Part shown: positions 4,438 through 63,110 of the stretch, in pieces
Layout of the letters: every line of letters begins with the position of its first letter
How positions within the stretch are numbered: position 1 is the first letter of the stretch
NCBI GenBank assembly: GCA_034521515.1
Contig: JAXHMH010000002.1
Location: forward strand, 437,761 to 501,760
DNA from: Candidatus Saccharimonadota bacterium
GTDB taxonomy: Bacteria > Patescibacteriota > Saccharimonadia > Saccharimonadales > JAXHMH01
Reading direction: 5' to 3'
DNA: 64,000 bases
Made by a program: the position numbers and the translations under genes
The notes under the pieces: generated by a model
What the model was told of the DNA's origin: nothing
What the model saw: the letters and a program-made list of their open reading frames with translations, nothing else
Database searches by the model: none

Positions 4438-4468
4438 AGTTTCGCATCACAGCGGTCTGCTGTCCAGC
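4438..4468. repeat. 31-bp direct repeat copy A1 (AGTTTCGCATCACAGCGGTCTGCTGTCCAGC)
   Basis: It is identical to 4703..4733. It lies 7 nt upstream of the Mur-ligase start codon, inside a GC-rich 515-bp intergenic region. Confidence 0.8.
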
Positions 4469-4702: not shown

Positions 4703-4733
4703 AGTTTCGCATCACAGCGGTCTGCTGTCCAGC
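4703..4733. repeat. 31-bp direct repeat copy A2
   Basis: It is an exact copy of 4438..4468. Partner repeats CTGCACTCAAGTGCGAAAC (4580..4598) and CTGCACTCAAGTGCGAACC (4675..4693) carry the reverse complement of the A 5' end. Confidence 0.8.
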
Positions 4734-10046: not shown

Positions 10047-10427
10047 CCGCTTTGAGAGGAGGTGATTCCTCCTCTCAACGCGCGGGGCGCCGGAATGAAT
10101 CCGGGCGCTCCGGCTGCTCTCCTCCCGTTACTAACGCTACAAATCCGAAACAAGTTCGGACTTGTAGCGGATTTAATTAATGCAAGAAGTGGCTTCACAT
10201 AGCTGGACTCACTTTTATCCTAGGTTCTCGCTCGGCCGATGGGTTTTGTGTGCTCTTTGGCTCGGAAATCACTAAAGCCGATTTATCGGATAATGCTGCA
10301 ACCCACATTTTCAGCATAATTGCTCCAGTCATTTGTGCGCGTTACACGTCGGAAAAATGGAATTTTTAGGCCGGCGCCACGCCTTAACCGTTTTTACCTT
10401 AAGTTACCTTAAGTACCCACTTGTTTA

Positions 10428-10459
10428 TGTGTAAATATGATTTAAATCATATTTACACA
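10428..10459. promoter_or_regulatory. Perfect 32-bp palindrome TGTGTAAATATGATTT|AAATCATATTTACACA (candidate operator)
   Basis: Read directly from the sequence. It ends 4 nt before the ATG of the 10464 ORF. Its core AATATGATTTAAATCATAT is shared with 28285..28304. Confidence 0.6.
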
Positions 10460-10463
10460 AACC

Positions 10464-11144
10464 ATGTATTTTATATGCCCCATAATCTGGTTATTTGCGA
10501 TTAAGATGTATATGATACAGGGCATGAGTGAGAAGCAACTGCAGTTTTTTGCGTGGGGTATTAGTGTCGGGTCGGTTTTGCTGGCTATTTTGGCATGGGG
10601 GCAGGATTTTCGGTGGCAAATTAATGATATGACTCCGTATCAATGGTTCCCGCTTTTGGGTCTGATTGCTTTTAGCCTTATGTGGGCGCACTACGTAGCT
10701 AGTGTTGTCCGGCAACACAATAAAATCGAGCCTACTGTGCTCAAGCGTTACTTTGATAGTACCAGCGTAGTGGTGCTGATTGCTATTTTGTTACACCCGG
10801 GTCTCCTGGCGTACCAGTTAGTAGAAGATGGCCTAGGCAGACCGCCGGATAGTTTTTATGATTATGTTGGTCAGGCTATGGGGTTATCTATCACACTTGG
10901 CTACGTGGCGCTCGGTGCCTTTTTACTGTATGAATTTCGTCATTGGTTTGGTCAGAGGTCATGGTGGCGGTTTATAAGCTATGCGAGCGATGTGGCAATC
11001 CTTCTCATTTACTTGCATGCGTTACGGCTCGGTAGCCAGCTTGTCAGTGGCTGGTATCTCGGCGTTTGGTATTTTTACGGCGCGACTTTACTGGCGTCAC
11101 TTGTATATATTCACTCCAGACGTCTGCGCAAACCAAAAGTTTAG
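10464..11144 (+). CDS. Hypothetical polytopic membrane protein
   Basis: 226-aa ORF with at least 6 TM helices. The true start may be an internal Met at 10506, 10512 or 10524, because the palindrome abuts the first ATG. Confidence 0.5.
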   Translation: MYFICPIIWLFAIKMYMIQGMSEKQLQFFAWGISVGSVLLAILAWGQDFRWQINDMTPYQWFPLLGLIAFSLMWAHYVASVVRQHNKIEPTVLKRYFDSTSVVVLIAILLHPGLLAYQLVEDGLGRPPDSFYDYVGQAMGLSITLGYVALGAFLLYEFRHWFGQRSWWRFISYASDVAILLIYLHALRLGSQLVSGWYLGVWYFYGATLLASLVYIHSRRLRKPKV

Positions 11145-15126: not shown

Positions 15127-15148
15127 AATGTATTTCCCTAGTTTTGCT

Positions 15149-15181
15149 AAACGCGCCAGTCGACTGGCGCGTTTATTTTTT
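15149..15181 (+). terminator. Intrinsic terminator AAACGCGCCAGTCGACTGGCGCGTTTATTTTTT
   Basis: 7-bp GC stem followed by a T-run. A near-identical palindrome recurs at 33626..33653. Confidence 0.75.
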
Positions 15182-18413: not shown

Positions 18414-18452
18414 TGTGAGTTGAATCACAAAATGGTCGTGATATGTGTCACC
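18414..18452. promoter_or_regulatory. Two tandem CRP-type boxes: TGTGAgttgaaTCACA (18414..18429) and cGTGAtatgtgTCACc (18437..18452)
   Basis: Both match the TGTGA-N6-TCACA consensus. They are centred 23 bp apart, in the divergent intergenic region between the 17801(-) and 18510(+) genes. Confidence 0.65.
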
Positions 18453-19010: not shown

Positions 19011-19679
19011 CTAAATTGCTTGTAGGAGGTCTGCTTCAAGTTTTGCAAGATCGGTGACAACAATTTGGCTGCGCTGTTTACGGAGTAAGCCGGATTTTTG
19101 AGCTTTTTGCAGTTCGCGGCTAATCGTCTCACGTGTGAGACCTACGCGAGCTGCTAGTTCGTCCTCGTTGATTGTGATTGAACATGATTTATCTGCTTGT
19201 GGGCTGCCGAAGCGCCGACATTCTGTAGCAAGTTCGTATAACAGCCGATTCCTCGCACTTCCAGACATCAGTTGCACCATTCTCCCTAGTAAACCGTCTA
19301 CTCCAATGTATACACGCGATAGCAGGTTAAACATAACGTCGGTGTTATTTTTTAAAAACGAAACTACGTCACTACGTGGTGCTATGTAAACTTGAATATC
19401 TTCTACTGCATCAAAAAAGAACTTATTAGGTACATCGGTTATTGCCCATATCATCGGAAAAAATGAGCCGGGTTTAAATACGTTAACAACTACTTCGTCG
19501 CCGCGATAAGAGATATCATACTGCCGGACAGTTCCTTTTTCCAGGTAGAATACATGTTGAGGTTGGTCGCCGTTATGTATGAGAACTTGTTTTTTGCTAT
19601 ACGAACGCATAGGGTATTGCTTGAAAAACGCTGCAACTTTTGTGTCAATTTTATTTACCGGCATGTCGACTCCTGTCAC
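19011..19679 (-). CDS. Crp/Fnr family transcriptional regulator
   Basis: It has a cNMP-binding beta-roll followed by a C-terminal HTH (GLTRETISRELQKAQKSGLL). The R-E-x-x-S-R recognition helix is present. Confidence 0.8.
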   Translation of the reverse strand: MTGVDMPVNKIDTKVAAFFKQYPMRSYSKKQVLIHNGDQPQHVFYLEKGTVRQYDISYRGDEVVVNVFKPGSFFPMIWAITDVPNKFFFDAVEDIQVYIAPRSDVVSFLKNNTDVMFNLLSRVYIGVDGLLGRMVQLMSGSARNRLLYELATECRRFGSPQADKSCSITINEDELAARVGLTRETISRELQKAQKSGLLRKQRSQIVVTDLAKLEADLLQAI

Positions 19680-25873: not shown

Positions 25874-26878
25874 TCACGTAAATAATAAATTACTGGCAGC
25901 TGTTAGGGCAGCAAATTGCTCGGGGTCAGAGCGACGATGGCCGGCGTTTACCATCTGTAGGGTCATATTTTTACCGTATGCTTTTGCTAGTTTATGGGCG
26001 GTTACTGGTGGAGTGCAATTATCAAATCTACCTTGCACTACATATAGTGGCAGGTGTTTGATTTTATCTACGTTATCTAGGATGTAATTTTCTGGCATAA
26101 AACAGTCGTTCAAAAAATAGTGCGCCTCAATTTTAGCCAACGGCAGGTTGTTTTCGTCACCGAGTACATCTTGTTCTAACTTTTTAAGATTGTAGCCAAC
26201 ACTCATGTTGGAAAGTTCCCACAGTGTCCACTCGTCGGCGTATTTTTGAGCAGTTTTCTTATCCTTAGACTCGAATTGTTGAGCATAGTACTTGGTGATT
26301 GCTTCGCCATTTTTTCGCCATTTTTCTGGCACATGAGAAATAAAACGCTCCCAGGCCTCAGGATAGGTGTAGCGAGCGTGACCTTCGGAAATAAGACTCG
26401 TCTCAAATTTGCTGCCAAGATAAATCCCCCAAGCAAGCATGGCCTTAACTCGGCTTGGGTAGGCAATGGCGTAGGCTAGCACCATGGTTGAGCCCCAAGA
26501 GCCGCCGACGAGATGCATTTGCTCTATCCCAAGATGTTTTCGTAATTTTTCGGTATCTTCTACTAACTTTTGAGTGGTGTTTTGCTTTAGGCTTGCAAAC
26601 GGCGTACTTTTGCCCGACCCACGCTGGTCAAAAAATATCACCCGGTGCTTTTTTGGATCAAACATCAGTTTATTGCTATCGCTAAAGCCTCCGCCCGGCC
26701 CGCCATGGAAATGCATGACAGGGAAGCCGCTTGGGTTGCCCCAATCCTCCCAATACAACTTGTGCCCGTCGCCAACATCCAAGTGCCCAGACTTTCTTAC
26801 GTGCAGATCAATAGCTTTACTCACAGTTCCACACGCTTTCTGGATTGCTGCTTTTTCTTCCAGACTTCTTCTGGCCAC
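25874..26878 (-). CDS. pip: Proline iminopeptidase (prolyl aminopeptidase, S33 alpha/beta hydrolase)
   Basis: Carries HGGPGGG, the nucleophile elbow GGSWGSTMVLAYA and a C-terminal GHRRSD/His. The annotated start overlaps the upstream gene by 58 nt, so the real start is probably downstream or uses GTG. Confidence 0.8.
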   Translation of the reverse strand: MARRSLEEKAAIQKACGTVSKAIDLHVRKSGHLDVGDGHKLYWEDWGNPSGFPVMHFHGGPGGGFSDSNKLMFDPKKHRVIFFDQRGSGKSTPFASLKQNTTQKLVEDTEKLRKHLGIEQMHLVGGSWGSTMVLAYAIAYPSRVKAMLAWGIYLGSKFETSLISEGHARYTYPEAWERFISHVPEKWRKNGEAITKYYAQQFESKDKKTAQKYADEWTLWELSNMSVGYNLKKLEQDVLGDENNLPLAKIEAHYFLNDCFMPENYILDNVDKIKHLPLYVVQGRFDNCTPPVTAHKLAKAYGKNMTLQMVNAGHRRSDPEQFAALTAASNLLFT

Positions 26879-28218
26879 AGGGTAGAACCCGTATGATTTA
26901 CGGATTTAATCTTGTTATTATCGAAATTAAAGACAACAAGCTCGTCTTCCGAGCTGAAGCTACTAGCATTAGTAACTCTGAGTGTTTTACCGTCTACGTA
27001 CTCTAGCTCTTCTAGGCTTGAAAACGGTTGCCATGCACCCGGGTGTATAGAAACAAGCTTATCGCCAACAGCGACCATTTCGCTAACACCCCACAGTCCG
27101 GCAAATCGACCTTCAAACTTGGCAAGATCATGCTTTGGTTTAGAGCTAGTCATGTTGTCGTTGAAGTAATCAAAAATCCCGTATATACCTTTGGCGGTGT
27201 TCTCGGCAGGCCCACCAATGCAATTAGTTAGCACCACAACAACAAGCTCGTCTTTTGGATCGGCAACAGTCATAGTTATTTGACCCGGAAAACCGCCACC
27301 ATGACCGACGGTAGTGCGTTTTTTTAAATTCTCGATCACGAGTCCCAGACCATAATCTTCGTCATTTTCTTGGCCAGGCGTTTTGGCGTGGAAATGAACC
27401 CGCTGCATCTCTTTCTTGGATTCGTCATCTAAAAGTTGACCAGAACCGACGAAGTGGGCAGTAAAGTACGCACACAAATCATCAGCCGTGGCGTAAAAAC
27501 CGGTTGCTGGAGCCATGGCTTGAGTTTCAGTATGAGCGATGGGCAGCCGTTTCTTATCCGCTTCGCGGCGGCTGTATCCGGTAACGAGTCTGTCATCAAG
27601 CTCCGGAGTGTACTCCGGCCCAGTGTTTTTCAGACCGAGTGGCTTGACGATGTGTTTGGTAACGTATTTGTTATACGAAATACCGGCAACCGCCTCGATT
27701 AACAGGCCGAGTAGCGAGTAGCCGTAGTTGGAATACTTCATCTTAATGTTGTTGTCGATAACGAGACTAGCATCCATAATTTCCTTCTTAAGTTGTGCTT
27801 TATCTGGGAACGGACGTTCTAGCTGCCAATAATCAGCCTTATTGCCATCGCGGACTATTCCAGCACCATGCGACATAATTTGACGTATAGTTATCTTTTG
27901 CCATCGTTTGTCTTTGTGGCTCTTAAGCCACGGCAAGAAGTCAGTCACATAATCATCAATGCGTAGTTTCCCTTGCTCCTGGAGCTGCATAAGCGCTGTT
28001 GAGGTAAAAGACTTGGAGTGTGAAGCTATACGGAAAATGTGATTGCTGGTCATCTTGGTATTATTCTCTAGGTCGGCAAAACCATAGGCCTCGTTCATGA
28101 CAATTTTGCCTTTGTGCGATATGGCAACTACAAAGCCAGGAGTTTCCTCGTGCTCGTAGCGGTAGGCCAACCAGGACTTAATGAATGTAACCGATTTATC
28201 TAAGGCTTCTTGTTTCAT
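26821..28218 (-). CDS. Serine hydrolase of the beta-lactamase/PBP4* family (class-C-like fold) with C-terminal extension
   Basis: The catalytic motifs are SHSK (SxxK), YSN (YxN) and HGG. The protein is 465 aa. Confidence 0.75.
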   Translation of the reverse strand: MKQEALDKSVTFIKSWLAYRYEHEETPGFVVAISHKGKIVMNEAYGFADLENNTKMTSNHIFRIASHSKSFTSTALMQLQEQGKLRIDDYVTDFLPWLKSHKDKRWQKITIRQIMSHGAGIVRDGNKADYWQLERPFPDKAQLKKEIMDASLVIDNNIKMKYSNYGYSLLGLLIEAVAGISYNKYVTKHIVKPLGLKNTGPEYTPELDDRLVTGYSRREADKKRLPIAHTETQAMAPATGFYATADDLCAYFTAHFVGSGQLLDDESKKEMQRVHFHAKTPGQENDEDYGLGLVIENLKKRTTVGHGGGFPGQITMTVADPKDELVVVVLTNCIGGPAENTAKGIYGIFDYFNDNMTSSKPKHDLAKFEGRFAGLWGVSEMVAVGDKLVSIHPGAWQPFSSLEELEYVDGKTLRVTNASSFSSEDELVVFNFDNNKIKSVNHTGSTLWPEEVWKKKQQSRKRVEL

Positions 28219-28284
28219 TATATTTATAATAACAGATACGGAATATACATAGTATCTAACATAAGTATTGTTGAAATTATTAGA

Positions 28285-28304
28285 AATATGATTTAAATCA
28301 TATT
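28285..28304. promoter_or_regulatory. 20-bp perfect palindrome AATATGATTT|AAATCATATT (second copy of the 10428 motif)
   Basis: It lies in the divergent promoter region between the beta-lactamase-family gene (-) and the AbrB-like ORF (+). The sequence continues CATATCATATTTACA, as at locus 1. Confidence 0.6.
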
Positions 28305-28367
28305 CATATCATATTTACATTTGTTAATATGAAGATAGGGTAAATTAAATATAAAAAGGAAGTTTAT

Positions 28368-28544
28368 ATGGGTGTACGTACAAGTGAAGAGCAACATATC
28401 CGGAGCATCATGCAAAATAACAGCGGGTCGTATACGGTTTCCTTGCCAATCGCCATGGTTCGGAAATTGCGGTGGCAGCGGCGGCAAAAAGTCACCGTCA
28501 CCCTAAAAGGCGACAAACTGGTTATTGAAGACTGGAAAGATTGA
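28368..28544 (+). CDS. AbrB/MazE/SpoVT-family small DNA-binding protein (58 aa; absent from the ORF track because it is under 60 aa)
   Basis: AAAAGGAAG lies 8 nt upstream of the ATG. The translation MGVRTSEEQHIRSIMQNNSGSYTVSLPIAMVRKLRWQRRQKVTVTLKGDKLVIEDWKD has a looped-hinge swapped-hairpin signature (VSLPIAMVRKL...VTLKGDKLVIE). Confidence 0.5.
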   Translation: MGVRTSEEQHIRSIMQNNSGSYTVSLPIAMVRKLRWQRRQKVTVTLKGDKLVIEDWKD

Positions 28545-28545
28545 A

Positions 28546-29127
28546 TTAGGTTGGTATATTCGTTCGTGCAGCGAACGTAACCATTCCGTCATAGATATCT
28601 TTAGCCGAAAATTCAATTTCAGACGCATCAGATATGTGAGAGTATTGCGCACAATCCACGTTTCCGTTAGGAGTACCCACCATGTATGAATCATGGGAAA
28701 AGCCCCAGAAGTACATTAATGAGCCATGAGGGGTAAGAAGTACAGCGTGGTTTTTGTAGTACGCACTGTTATTCATGTTGTTTACAGCTGGTTCTTGATA
28801 CTGACTCTTATTCTTAGCGGCTACAAGCCAGCCACTAGCGACGACAACTTCCTTATTTTTAGCCCACATGCCAGGAATCTTTGGTCTTATCGTTTCTAGT
28901 CGGGTTAAGTGGTCGTATTCATTAAGGTGACGTGACGCAATCGGGCCTAAAGCTCTAGCTACTTTAAGTACATGGGTATTACGAGAAGCGCGCTCAATTT
29001 GCCTGTGTGTGTTTATTACTGCTTCTTGCCGGGCACGTTCATGCAACGCCTCGACTTCTTTAGAAAATTCTGATCCCAAGCCGCTCATAATAACTTTATA
29101 TTCCAACTCACGAAGTTTTGCAAGCAT
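28546..29127 (-). CDS. Hypothetical protein
   Basis: 193-aa ORF directly downstream of the HD-domain gene, so likely an operon. Confidence 0.45.
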   Translation of the reverse strand: MLAKLRELEYKVIMSGLGSEFSKEVEALHERARQEAVINTHRQIERASRNTHVLKVARALGPIASRHLNEYDHLTRLETIRPKIPGMWAKNKEVVVASGWLVAAKNKSQYQEPAVNNMNNSAYYKNHAVLLTPHGSLMYFWGFSHDSYMVGTPNGNVDCAQYSHISDASEIEFSAKDIYDGMVTFAARTNIPT

Positions 29128-33524: not shown

Positions 33525-33625
33525 TAGGTACTTATTATATAGAATAAGTATAAATTAGAAAGGTACCCGTATAGTTTAGATAGTATATATAGACTTGTGC
33601 TGTCCACCGCAAGTCATAATTTATA

Positions 33626-33653
33626 AATGCGCCACTCGACTGGCGCGTTTAAA
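33626..33653. repeat. Palindromic repeat AAATGCGCCACTCGACTGGCGCGTTTAAA
   Basis: It differs at only 2 of 26 positions from the 15149 terminator, in the same orientation. Confidence 0.6.
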
Positions 33654-41592: not shown

Positions 41593-41997
41593 ATGGGATG
41601 GCCACGAAATAGCTACACTGGTTACGGTGAAGGATCCTGTCCGGCACGAAGCGGTATGTATAAGGCCAGGCAGAGGTGCATCCTGCCAGGCCCAGGCGGA
41701 GGTGCATCTGCGGGCAGGTTGGAAGCAGTATGTATACCAGGCCAGGGTGGTGGACTATCTACCGGCCCAGGTGGTGGACTATCTACCGGCCCAGGTGGTG
41801 GACTATCTACCGGCCCAGGTGGTGGACTATCTACCGGCCCAGGTGGTGGACTGTATACTGGTCCAGGTGGCGGATTATACGCAGGCCCTAGTCCTTACTA
41901 CAGCAATATCCCGCCTCGCCATTTATATCTCGAAGAACTAAAGAGACGTGGCTTGATGCAATACTATGACTTATTAAAGCGTGCTTGGAGACTTTAG
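41593..41997 (+). CDS. Gly/Pro-rich repeat protein (GPGGGLST)n
   Basis: The ORF spans the 24-bp tandem DNA repeat. Coding status is uncertain. Confidence 0.35.
   Translation: MGWPRNSYTGYGEGSCPARSGMYKARQRCILPGPGGGASAGRLEAVCIPGQGGGLSTGPGGGLSTGPGGGLSTGPGGGLSTGPGGGLYTGPGGGLYAGPSPYYSNIPPRHLYLEELKRRGLMQYYDLLKRAWRL
41740..41883. repeat. Tandem repeat of 6 copies x 24 bp (GGCCCAGGTGGTGGACTATCTACC)
   Basis: The three central copies are identical and the terminal copies are degenerate. Confidence 0.85.
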
Positions 41998-51059: not shown

Positions 51060-51109
51060 AGTTTCAATTACCTCTGATCGCTTGCATTATTACACCACAT
51101 TCTCTTCTA

Positions 51110-51130
51110 TTCCAAGACCAGGTCTTGGAA
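51110..51130. repeat. REP-like palindrome TTCCAAGAC-CAG-GTCTTGGAA (solo copy, with outer inverted arms about 51088..51150)
   Basis: The same 21-bp core flanks the RAYT gene at 62361 and 63063. Confidence 0.7.
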
Positions 51131-51197
51131 ATCGGAGAAATGTGGTATAGATGTTATTTTTGGCGTGCTATTAGCGGCGTAGTTAAGGCTACGCTTT

Positions 51198-51280
51198 GCT
51201 TTAGTCCTCGAAGAGAACTTACACTCTGCACATGCTCAGTCAACTCTGGACAACAAAGTCAGTTGGCACTCTTGACCATG
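51198..51280. repeat. Imperfect direct repeat copy 1 (about 80 bp) upstream of hrcA
   Basis: It shares ...AAAGTCAGTTGGCACTCTTGAC... with 51388..51465. Confidence 0.55.
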
Positions 51281-51448
51281 CCAAGACTACCAACATAACG
51301 TTCACTACCAGCACCGCCTGTTGCACGCCTATCTTGCCAGTTTCTTTTCCAGTCCAGCTACGCTGTAGCAACAACTACACCTTGCTCTGGTCTTCAAAGA
51401 GAACTACCAAGCTAGGCATGCCCAGTCGGTGCCGGACAATAAAGTCAG

Positions 51449-51475
51449 TTGGCACTCTTGACATGAGACTGCTAA
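51449..51475. promoter_or_regulatory. CIRCE-like HrcA operator TTGGCACTC-N9-GACTGCTAA with overlapping TTGACA -35 hexamer
   Basis: It has 2 mismatches to TTAGCACTC-N9-GAGTGCTAA and lies 26 nt upstream of the hrcA start. Confidence 0.6.
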
Positions 51476-51500: not shown

Positions 51501-52214
51501 ATGAGTGCTATGACATCACGACAAGAAGGAATATTACGAGCGATCGTTGAGCAATATGCAGAGGTCGCTAGCCCGGTTGGGTCTAGTTTGCTCGCGAAAC
51601 TTTTTGACGTGTCATCAGCTACCATTCGTGCCGATATGGCCGAGCTTGAACAGCTAGGCTACATAAGCCAGCCCCATACCAGTGCGGGGCGCGTACCAAC
51701 TGATATAGGGTATCGTTTTTACGTTAACAATTTAAGTATCGGTGAAGAATCCGCCGCCGAAAAACGTGCCGAAAAGGCATTGAGCGTAAGGGTTGGTCAC
51801 GGTGGTGTGCCGGATCGCATGATTCGCAATGCCGTCGATACGTTAGTAGAACTGACTCACAATCTCGGTATGGCGACACTTGGCGACCAACTATATATGA
51901 GCGGTTTATCTAACCTTTTTGGTCAACCAGAGTTCATGCACAAAGGGCAAGTCCAGCAAGTTGCGAGGTTGCTGGACAATCTTGAACCATGGCTCAAAGA
52001 GGTGGCACCTAATGAGCCGCTGAATGTTTATATTGGCGCCGAGAATCCCATTGGGCGGACTGCAGGATGCAGCTTAATTATCAGCAAATTCCGCAGCCCG
52101 TATAGTGATCAAAGCTATATCGGTGTACTTGGCCCAACCCGTCAAAGTTACCGTGACGTTATAGGGTTGGTACGCCACGCCGGACAATCACTAGAGGAAT
52201 CGCTATACGCGTAA
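51501..52214 (+). CDS. hrcA: Heat-inducible transcription repressor HrcA (short form)
   Basis: The N-terminal winged helix is ILRAIVEQYAEVASPVGSSLLA. It is the first gene of the grpE-dnaK operon. Confidence 0.8.
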   Translation: MSAMTSRQEGILRAIVEQYAEVASPVGSSLLAKLFDVSSATIRADMAELEQLGYISQPHTSAGRVPTDIGYRFYVNNLSIGEESAAEKRAEKALSVRVGHGGVPDRMIRNAVDTLVELTHNLGMATLGDQLYMSGLSNLFGQPEFMHKGQVQQVARLLDNLEPWLKEVAPNEPLNVYIGAENPIGRTAGCSLIISKFRSPYSDQSYIGVLGPTRQSYRDVIGLVRHAGQSLEESLYA

Positions 52215-61862: not shown

Positions 61863-62343
61863 TCGTATCTTGGGTATTGATCCCGGCACCGGCATACTCG
61901 GTTTCGGGCTTATTGATATAGACAGTCGAGGTAAGGCAAGTTTGGTTGACGCCGGCGTCATAAGAACTAAACCCAATCAGCCTGATAGTGAGCGATTGCT
62001 AATTATTTATGATGAATTATCAGAAATCATAGCTCAGACTAATCCTACATGCATGGCGGTAGAGAAGCTCTTTTTTGCACAAAATGTGACTACGGCAATG
62101 ACGGTGGCTCAGGCTAGGGGAGTTGTACTTTTAGCGGGTGAAAAAAGTGAACTTCCTCTGAGTGAGTACACTCCCCTGCAAATCAAACAGGCGCTAACAG
62201 GATACGGCCGCGCTGATAAGAAACAAATCCAAGAAATGGTGCGCGTACTTCTCAGCCTAAAAGATGTACCAAAGCCTGATGACTGTGCTGATGCATTGGC
62301 TACCGCCCTTTGCCACACCATGCACCGCAAACTAAACCTATAA
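61852..62343 (+). CDS. ruvC: Holliday junction resolvase RuvC
   Basis: ILGIDPGTGILGFGLI, with the catalytic acidic residues. It overlaps yebC by 11 nt. Confidence 0.85.
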   Translation: MRTDRILGIDPGTGILGFGLIDIDSRGKASLVDAGVIRTKPNQPDSERLLIIYDELSEIIAQTNPTCMAVEKLFFAQNVTTAMTVAQARGVVLLAGEKSELPLSEYTPLQIKQALTGYGRADKKQIQEMVRVLLSLKDVPKPDDCADALATALCHTMHRKLNL

Positions 62344-62360
62344 GACCACATTTCCTCGGT

Positions 62361-62381
62361 TTCCAAGACCAGGTCTTGGAA
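62361..62381. repeat. REP-like palindrome TTCCAAGACCAGGTCTTGGAA (left flank of RAYT)
   Basis: Identical core to the copies at 51110 and 63063. Confidence 0.75.
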
Positions 62382-62422
62382 TAGCAGGAATTATGGTATA
62401 CATACAAAAATAAATCATAGGT

Positions 62423-63040
62423 TTAGCTTGCTAGCGAGTGCTCGATCTCCGTTAACATATCCTTGTGTTCCTTATAGTCTTCAACAAATTTCAGATAATC
62501 GTGAGCATCCGTAAACAGTTCCAAAATTCGGGTTGGCTGTATCCACTCGACAGACTTATACCCAAGATAGTGGGGAAGACTTGAATACGGCCACTCTTTG
62601 TAAGCAACCGGATTGAGGTGTATATAACGAGAAATATGGTGTAAATACTCATCAGAAGTGATCATACTGGCCTTAAACCTATCTTGAAAAAGAGGACCGA
62701 CACGTTTATGTTTTTTATTAAAATACGAGGTGTAGCTACCACAAACATTTTTTATCAGATTTTTCAGGGCATTCTCCTCTAGCTGGTAAACAAGCAGGTG
62801 GAAATGGTTTGGCATAAGGCAAAAAGCCAATAGTTCAATATCGTTATAAAGCCACGGATATTGTCGACCCTTTGTATCTTTTGCTGGTTCCCTCGAAAGA
62901 TAACGTTTGAGTAGATTTAAAAAAACTGAGTAGTCTTCGTCGTCTAAAAATATCTTCCGCTTATCAACCCCTCTGTTATAAACATGGTAATGCGTATTTT
63001 CTATGTAGATTTTTCGAGAATTCCGGCTAGCCATTAACAC
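62423..63040 (-). CDS. REP-associated tyrosine transposase (RAYT; IS200/IS605-like HUH Y1 transposase)
   Basis: The HUH motif is MPNHFHLLV, the N-terminal motif is THYHVYNRG, and a Tyr-containing C-terminal helix is present (SDEYLHHISRYIHLNP). The gene is flanked by identical palindromes. Confidence 0.75.
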   Translation of the reverse strand: MLMASRNSRKIYIENTHYHVYNRGVDKRKIFLDDEDYSVFLNLLKRYLSREPAKDTKGRQYPWLYNDIELLAFCLMPNHFHLLVYQLEENALKNLIKNVCGSYTSYFNKKHKRVGPLFQDRFKASMITSDEYLHHISRYIHLNPVAYKEWPYSSLPHYLGYKSVEWIQPTRILELFTDAHDYLKFVEDYKEHKDMLTEIEHSLAS

Positions 63041-63056
63041 AATTATACAATAAAAA

Positions 63057-63089
63057 CCCCAATTCCAAGACCAGGTCTTGGAATTGGGG
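63057..63089. repeat. REP-like palindrome CCCCAATTCCAAGAC-CAG-GTCTTGGAATTGGGG (right flank of RAYT)
   Basis: Perfect 15-bp stem with a 3-nt loop. Confidence 0.75.
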
Positions 63090-63110
63090 AAAAGATGAGA
63101 TAATGAAATT

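Follow-up and report, generated by a model that had tools for sequence, protein, structure and literature searches.

Two phased palindromic sites as probable operators of an orphan AbrB/MazE-fold protein in a Saccharibacterium

A perfect palindrome of 32 bp in the genome of a Candidatus Saccharimonadota bacterium raises the question of which protein reads it, if any. The palindrome, TGTGTAAATATGATTTAAATCATATTTACACA (site 1), consists of two arms of 16 nt and lies in a window of 64,000 nt, by which we mean the whole stretch of DNA analysed here. No longer perfect palindrome is present in this window, and the longest arms obtained when the window was simulated (200 runs of a first-order Markov model) had a mean length of only 8.1 and a maximum of 11 nt. 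A 21-bp core of site 1, AAATATGATTTAAATCATATT, has an exact second copy (site 2), which according to the ORF coordinates is located between two divergent genes, one encoding a protein of the beta-lactamase family and the other a small AbrB-like protein (Table 1). A preliminary description of the sequence had already reported the palindrome, the recurrence of its core at a second promoter and the placement of this second copy, and all three were borne out. Downstream of the core, site 2 contains CATATTTACA at 28310-28319. The element TCATATTTACA of site 1 is also found at 28309-28319, where it forms an extra arm with its inverted partner TGTTAATATGA at 28322-28332. The sequence of site 2 is identical in an independent Logan assembly (L121).

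How unusual is such a pair? With a 14-mer and up to 2 mismatches, 3 matches were found in the window where 0.37 were expected. A search of the 64-kb window with the 18-mer ATATGATTTAAATCATAT and up to 3 mismatches retrieved sites 1 and 2 only, that is 2 matches versus 0.04 expected, and a further copy of the 21-bp core was not found in the 64 kb. Beyond the 20 bases that they share, the two sites have flanks that do not align and, therefore, neither a segmental duplication nor a mobile element accounts for the pair. The preliminary description had postulated a promoter-region operator common to two loci, an idea to be given up if the sequence turned out to be a dispersed multi-copy repeat. Two copies in 64 kb with unrelated flanks support the postulate. 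As outlined below, the two sites are probably phased-box operators of an orphan protein of 58 amino acids with an AbrB/MazE fold that would regulate its own gene.

Table 1 Position of the sites, their boxes and the neighbouring genes (window coordinates unless a locus is named).
Feature	Sequence	Position	Strand	Remark
Non-coding spacer, ABC-2 permease gene to membrane-protein gene		10047-10523		477 bp; site 1 at its 3' end
Site 1	TGTGTAAATATGATTTAAATCATATTTACACA	10428-10459		perfect palindrome
Site 1, box 1	GTGTAAAT	10429-10436		6/8
Site 1, box 2	ATTTAAAT	10440-10447		8/8
Site 1, box 3	ATTTACAC	10451-10458		6/8
Gene of 206-aa multi-pass membrane protein (hypothetical protein U5K77_02280)		10524-11144	+	annotated start 10524
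Perfect CRP-type box	TGTGAGTTGAATCACA	18414-18429		TGTGA-N6-TCACA; divergent intergenic region adjoining the Crp/Fnr gene
Crp/Fnr-family regulator gene		19011-19679	-	recognition helix RETISR
Beta-lactamase-family gene		26821-28218	-	PF00144, SxxK serine hydrolase; divergent from the AbrB-like gene
Site 2, operator array		28280-28332		boxes in strict 11-bp phase
Site 2, box 1	TTAGAAAT	28280-28287		5/8
Site 2, copy of the 21-bp core	AAATATGATTTAAATCATATT	28284-28304		exact
Site 2, box 2	ATTTAAAT	28291-28298		8/8, perfect
Site 2, box 3	ATTCATAT	28302-28309		6/8
Site 2, box 4	ATTTACAT	28313-28320		7/8
58-aa AbrB/MazE/SpoVT-fold gene		28368-28544	+	proposed regulator
Gene 3' of the 58-aa gene		28546-29127	-	convergent
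Extra array near glmS, locus L158		3215-3243
Extra array near glmS, locus L162		3217-3247
Extra arrays near glmS, locus L164		2797-2831 and 4813-4839

The core had been read as a pair of half-sites, ATGA-N6-TCAT, with the spacing of a CRP/FNR box but a different sequence. This reading is better replaced by another one. Across all TTTAAA-centred sites listed around the genes of the clade, the invariant element is an 8-bp palindrome, ATTTAAAT, that repeats every 11 bp, whereas the 3-nt linkers between the boxes vary (ATG, CAT, CAG or CTG) and are found in inverted, everted and direct orientation with the dyads 11 bp apart. An invariant centre and flanking ATG and CAT that vary in all orientations are the reverse of a CRP/FNR site, in which the flanks are conserved and the centre is free. 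Site 1 has three boxes connected by the linkers ATG and CAT, site 2 has four, and one box of each site is perfect. A search for the two-box phased pattern with up to 3 mismatches gave 5 matches in the window versus 0.95 expected, all of them within sites 1 and 2. Since the centre is conserved, the flanks are variable and the dyads are spaced by 11 bp, a small dimer on each box fits the sites but the 22-bp footprint of a CRP/FNR protein does not. For mutational work we propose ATTGCAAT as a mutant form of the box; this is a designed and not a natural sequence.

The dyad of site 2 is 73.5 bp away from the ATG of the 58-aa gene, which is preceded by a Shine-Dalgarno-like AAAGGAAG, and 76.5 bp from the ATG of the divergent hydrolase gene. 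A promoter scan revealed no consensus sigma-70 promoter at site 1 or site 2. Elements placed by hand, TTTACA-16-TAGGGT as −35 and −10 at site 2 and TATATT on the right half-site in three relatives (L035, L045, L221), were mutually inconsistent and a promoter is not claimed.

The product of the 58-aa gene is predicted to be a swapped-hairpin DNA-binding protein. An identical protein from a Candidatus Saccharibacteria MAG is named 'AbrB/MazE/SpoVT family DNA-binding domain-containing protein' at NCBI. The match of the window protein itself to PF04014 is weak (21.9 bits, E 1.7e-4) and under the cut-off of 24.7 bits; of the 62 family members, 60 matched PF04014 at E<=0.01, the best with 1.6e-8. 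A profile of the family searched against the PDB gave only MazE, AbrB and PemI among the top six, again weakly (E 0.2-0.7). In an AlphaFold2 model (pLDDT 76.7) based on 70 homologues from databases, the predicted topology is beta-beta-alpha-beta-beta, with strands at residues 13-16, 22-25, 42-47 and 50-55 and a helix at 28-33. Foldseek ranks 1 to 33 of this predicted model were all MazE, AbrB, AbrB-type VapB, SpoVT, Sso7c4 or C56, with TMq values of up to 0.68, probabilities of up to 1.00 and E-values of 0.13 or higher, and the topology of the predicted monomer superposes on known members of the swapped-hairpin group. From the dyad symmetry of the operators and from their co-variation with the protein (see below) we infer that the protein homodimerises via interleaved hairpins and binds DNA. 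The family is large, with at least 790 clusters at 90% and at least 560 clusters at 50% identity, and its source names include Saccharibacteria, Pacebacteria, Vogelbacteria and Gracilibacteria.

A type II toxin-antitoxin module was considered and rejected because there is neither a conserved partner gene nor a toxin-binding tail. The 58-aa protein ends directly after its last strand and lacks a toxin-binding C-terminal extension, and the gene 3' of its own gene is convergent. In the relatives a conserved downstream partner was not found either: a co-directional neighbour is lacking in 29 of 51 loci, and those in the remainder are mutually unrelated.

The strongest argument for the AbrB-like protein comes from its relatives. 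A scan with the 18-mer ATATGATTTAAATCATAT of 185,579 genomes, one per bacterial or archaeal species, gave at least 120 loci. Among the matches listed only two are from Saccharibacteria (L035 and L045); in both, the 18-mer is 34 bp upstream of the orthologue of the 58-aa gene and the operator extends to TCATA-TTTAAA-TATGA-TTTAAA-TCATA. The 58-aa protein family is absent from the remaining 118 loci among the matches listed. A scan of viral contigs gave 11 AT-rich matches, none of them adjoining an AbrB-like gene, which were taken as chance. Altogether, nine or more other loci, from Saccharibacteria or metagenomes, have the same core upstream of an AbrB-like gene, and their proteins are 38-64% identical.

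Four orthologues were then aligned and used to search metagenomes, which gave 80 loci encoding relatives, with 60 distinct upstream regions. A perfect palindrome of 16 bp or more was found in 50% of these regions, whereas 1,791 control windows taken from these loci had one in 0.8%. Directly upstream of the AbrB-like gene nearly all relatives have palindromic boxes, two to four in number, that are in tandem or overlap. The sequence of the boxes varies from lineage to lineage: TGAATTAATTCA and GTAATTAATTAC are each present twice, CTACGTAG and TTACGTAA each three times, and CTCCGAGTTAACTCGGAG and TTCGGAATTAATTCCGAA are further examples. Where the boxes form direct repeats, they have a period of 12 bp (nine loci) or 11 bp (one locus); a comparable periodicity was not found in control regions.

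Relatives often have extra operator copies at neighbouring genes, so a second site in the window fits in with the family. In three loci (L158, L162, L164) an extra copy is present between the regulator gene and glmS, and L164 has a third copy after glmS. This suggests a control of cell-wall precursor synthesis in that sister lineage. In L190, a short contig, the extra copy is directly downstream of the regulator gene, and L145 has two operator copies in a divergent intergenic region. In the latter locus a (GTAGTAA)n heptamer tandem repeat (2870-2960) is found between operator and AbrB-like gene, and the operators are pushed to −151 and −260.

Does the operator change with the protein? Shared 12-mers compared with overall identity were a crude and uninformative measure of this due to AT-rich words. 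A loop-motif table was more telling: the operator type goes with the loop between beta1 and beta2 and not with overall identity. The loop Q(K/N)xN(T/S)G(T/S)YT(V/I)S is present in the window protein (as NNSGSYTVS) and in those of L035, L045, L135, L145 and L158, and all six loci contain the exact core AATATGATTTAAATCATATT or its 18-bp part ATATGATTTAAATCATAT, although these relatives are only 38-64% identical; L124 has a close variant of the AATATGATTTAAATCATATT core. The protein of L122, 53% identical to the window protein, has the loop NKTGTYQIS (motif TGTYQIS) and its gene has the operator CTCCGAGTTAACTCGGAG instead. Proteins with a TYT(V/I)T loop (L162, L164, L190) go with the operator ACATCAGATTTAAATCTGATGT. 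In a blind test, a further protein (P0002) was chosen by its loop motif before its DNA was looked at; TCATATTTAAGTATGATTTAAATCATAT was found upstream, centred at −42.5, and the prediction held. The position of this operator equals that in L035 and L045.

The case for site 1 is of a different kind. Its dyad is 80.5 bp and its edge 64 nt upstream of the start of the gene for the 206-aa membrane protein, some homologues of which match PF09900. In the relatives the spacer between the permease gene and the membrane-protein gene has only 3-276 bp compared with 477 bp in the window, and the palindrome is absent before the membrane-protein orthologues of five relatives (L202-L205, L208, L209). Spacer and site 1 are thus lineage-specific, and the argument for a function of site 1 is one of sequence identity, as the palindrome is not conserved before these orthologues. 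No homologue of the spacer was found in any locus examined, and no second AbrB-like gene, pseudogene or coding remnant was found in it. The part of the spacer preceding the palindrome (10047-10427) has GC-rich inverted repeats, such as GAGAGGAGGTGATTCCTCCTCTC at ~10055-10077, that have no Rfam match; a small RNA on either strand is possible.

It is therefore conceivable, though rather unlikely, that only site 2 is a real autoregulatory operator and that site 1 is non-functional or a very recent by-product that regulates nothing, having arisen for example by hairpin-templated palindromisation inside the newly inserted spacer. The location in a spacer missing from the relatives agrees with such an origin, as does the lack of a clear predicted promoter. 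In addition, the outer boxes of site 1 deviate from ATTTAAAT in a mirror-symmetric way, which suggests a templated origin and not an independent selection of each arm. On the other hand, a perfect central box and two boxes with 6 of 8 matches in exact 11-bp phase are just what bona fide sites have, the site is on the correct side of the gene at a short distance from its start, and extra operators at other genes are common in the relatives. We therefore regard site 1 as a candidate second target.

The principal competitor of the AbrB-like protein is the Crp/Fnr-family regulator, whose gene is also present in the window. The preliminary description had named both proteins as candidates; the AbrB-like protein gained from the conserved linkage and the co-variation of operator and protein in about 60 relatives, and the Crp/Fnr protein lost ground. 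A helix-turn-helix dimer could read the sites as (A)TGA-N6-TCA(T) or TGAT-N4-ATCA. The CRP consensus of E. coli is AAATGTGATCTAGATCACATTT and that of FNR is TTGAT-N4-ATCAA. The core is 18/22 identical to the former and 8/10 to the latter, and dyad symmetry and the TGA-N6-TCA spacing are likewise shared with CRP/FNR boxes. Furthermore, the same 18-mer is found in Nitrospirota MAGs upstream of genes for cytochrome c/FixO-like, 4Fe-4S and multihaem cytochrome proteins, as would be expected of FNR-type sites.

However, the recognition helix of the Crp/Fnr protein in the window keeps the Arg-Glu...Arg triad of CRP, and the only perfect CRP box of the window adjoins its gene. This box is probably the real operator class of the regulator and makes sites 1 and 2 unlikely targets. 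In both half-sites of the core (TATGA, TCATA) the G5 of TGTGA is missing. The relatives have an invariant TTTAAA centre with variable flanks and with dyads that overlap at offsets of 11 bp; in the more distant ones this position is taken by palindromes of quite another sequence, which track the adjoining AbrB-like protein. The sites differ from CRP/FNR boxes, then, in being centre-heavy, in overlapping at 11-bp offsets and in being linked to an AbrB-like and not to a Crp/Fnr gene; in every Saccharibacteria or metagenome locus examined (L035, L045, P0002 and the loci of the loop table) the site tracks the AbrB-like gene. The DNA word alone is ambiguous as to its regulator, given its likeness to the CRP consensus and the FNR-like regulon in Nitrospirota. 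The AbrB-like protein is preferred because of linkage, co-variation and the centre-heavy conservation, and a Crp/Fnr protein as the reader of sites 1 and 2 is quite unlikely.

It should be added that the 18-mer ATATGATTTAAATCATAT occurs without an AbrB-like gene in Nitrospirota/Thermodesulfovibrionia MAGs (L005-L088) and in about ten Flavobacterium loci. The latter (for example L048, L052, L061, L079, L119) represent one orthologous intergenic region. Of the Nitrospirota matches listed, 18 of 19 are intergenic; they are sometimes in tandem and several genomes have two. Judged by sequence, the Nitrospirota 18-mer is probably an FNR-type box.

That the palindromes are nucleic-acid structures or element ends (an RNA hairpin, terminator, cruciform, recombination site or MITE/REP end) is most improbable: site 1 does fold as a 14-bp RNA hairpin (−17.4 kcal/mol, z-score −5.1) and a genuine REP/IS200-like palindrome family is present elsewhere in the window, but site 2 folds weakly (z −2.0 and −3.0), the stems are AT-rich where an intrinsic terminator has a GC-rich hairpin and a U-tract, neither site has a U-tract or a terminator call, Rfam, whether at the gathering or at a permissive threshold, yielded nothing but tRNAs and a spurious miRNA-hairpin match on the palindrome, and the two copies in 64 kb, with flanks that are not homologous, correspond in the relatives to arrays that are always upstream of the AbrB-like gene and change in sequence with its protein.

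The window contains several other repeats. Imperfect palindromic repeats of ~65 nt with the core TTCCAAGACCAGGTCTTGGAA (62339-62403 and 63041-63105) are present on either side of an IS200/IS605-type Y1 transposase-like ORF (62423-63040, minus strand, PF01797), and a third such repeat is found at 51088-51152 upstream of hrcA; they resemble a family of the REP/RAYT-like or IS200-end type. Two 88-nt direct repeats, 77% identical and each ending in GTCAGTTGGCACTCTTGAC (51189-51276 and 51375-51462), shortly precede hrcA (51501-52214) and are possibly HrcA operators of a CIRCE-like type. A 28-bp perfect GC-rich palindrome, TAAACGCGCCAGTCGACTGGCGCGTTTA (15148-15175), follows tRNA-Met and is itself followed by a T-run; a 93%-complementary copy is present 18 kb away (33623-33651), and the two look like shared intrinsic terminators. 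At least six tandem 24-nt repeats GGCCCAGGTGGTGGACTATCTACC (41716-41907) are inside an ORF (41593-41997) encoding a Gly/Pro-rich repetitive protein. Finally, AGTTTCGCATCACAGCGGTCTGCTGTCCAGC is a direct repeat of 31 nt whose two copies (4438-4468 and 4703-4733) are identical and spaced by 265 bp.

How would the AbrB-like protein act? It would consist of a single swapped-hairpin DNA-binding domain, presumably as a homodimer, with one dimer on each palindromic ATTTAAAT box. As the repeat of 11 bp is about one helical turn, two to four dimers would be lined up across the promoter along the same face of the DNA. Bound to the array upstream of its own gene, the protein may occlude the promoter, which would amount to negative autoregulation, that is repression rather than activation, and the divergent beta-lactamase-family gene would possibly be co-regulated from the same site. 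Site 1 would be a lineage-specific second target in front of the membrane-protein gene.

Autoregulation by swapped-hairpin proteins at palindromic operators is well known from MazE, VapB and AbrB (PMC4333400, PMC3025583). MazE, PemI and the AbrB-type VapB antitoxins are the best sequence and structure matches of the 58-aa protein (PF04014; PDB 1ub4_C, 1mvf, 2mrn, 3zvk, 5l6l), and they act as repressors of their own promoter through operators that are palindromic or repeated (PMC4333400). Unlike these, the 58-aa protein has no toxin-binding tail at its C terminus and its gene has no conserved downstream gene. With AbrB of Bacillus subtilis, Abh and SpoVT it shares the predicted beta-beta-alpha-beta-beta swapped-hairpin fold, and with AbrB also the proposed autoregulation from sites upstream of its own gene together with a small set of further targets. 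AbrB, however, has 94 amino acids, is a tetramer with a C-terminal multimerisation domain and occupies hundreds of sites that have no clear consensus (PMC3025583, PMC4022651), whereas the 58-aa protein is the domain alone and its proposed sites are sharp palindromic boxes, kept base for base in relatives with 38-64% identity. Archaea and their viruses have swapped-hairpin dimers of a single domain as well, with 56-68 amino acids (Sso7c4, C56 of pSSVi and C68 of pSSVx; PMC3159460). Proteins of this type are among the Foldseek matches (2l66, 7xi6, 3o27), weakly, with TM values of 0.44-0.52; they are described as chromatin-like or of unknown specificity, whereas the 58-aa protein would have a specific, co-evolving operator. 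Another regulator of the swapped-hairpin superfamily, MraZ, binds short boxes, spaced by about one helical turn, that precede its own gene and the dcw operon. MraZ differs in having two fused domains, large oligomers and direct TGGGN repeats, compared with a single domain and palindromic boxes here.

A full-text search of the literature gave nothing on the 58-aa family, nor on AbrB-type regulators in Saccharibacteria or Patescibacteria. To our knowledge, gene regulation in the CPR bacteria (Patescibacteria) is almost unstudied; very few regulators can be recognised in them, and operators have hardly been mapped at all. It is tempting, if speculative, to view the family as a hitherto undescribed class of orphan repressors, 57-63 amino acids long and spread across the CPR, represented by its at least 560 clusters at 50% identity, that consist of a single swapped-hairpin domain and in which the loop and the boxes, phased at 11-12 bp, co-vary such that the specificity could be read from the protein. 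Should this be true, the family would be a natural 'recognition code' data set for a fold in which the sequence specificity of AbrB has long been unclear, and the circuit would be the first defined cis-regulatory circuit in Saccharibacteria. It would reach glmS in sister lineages and a PBP-like serine hydrolase and a membrane protein here, which hints at a control of the cell envelope.

The locus also holds a lesson on method: since the same 18-mer is FNR/CRP-like in other phyla, an assignment of the regulator from motif resemblance alone would have been misleading. The locus offers a directly testable pair of regulator and operator, and the relatives add dozens of natural specificity variants; loop-swap experiments could reveal how a swapped-hairpin dimer reads DNA. 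The locus also illustrates how a new target may be added to the circuitry of a streamlined genome, in this case through the emergence of a perfect operator within a newly inserted spacer.
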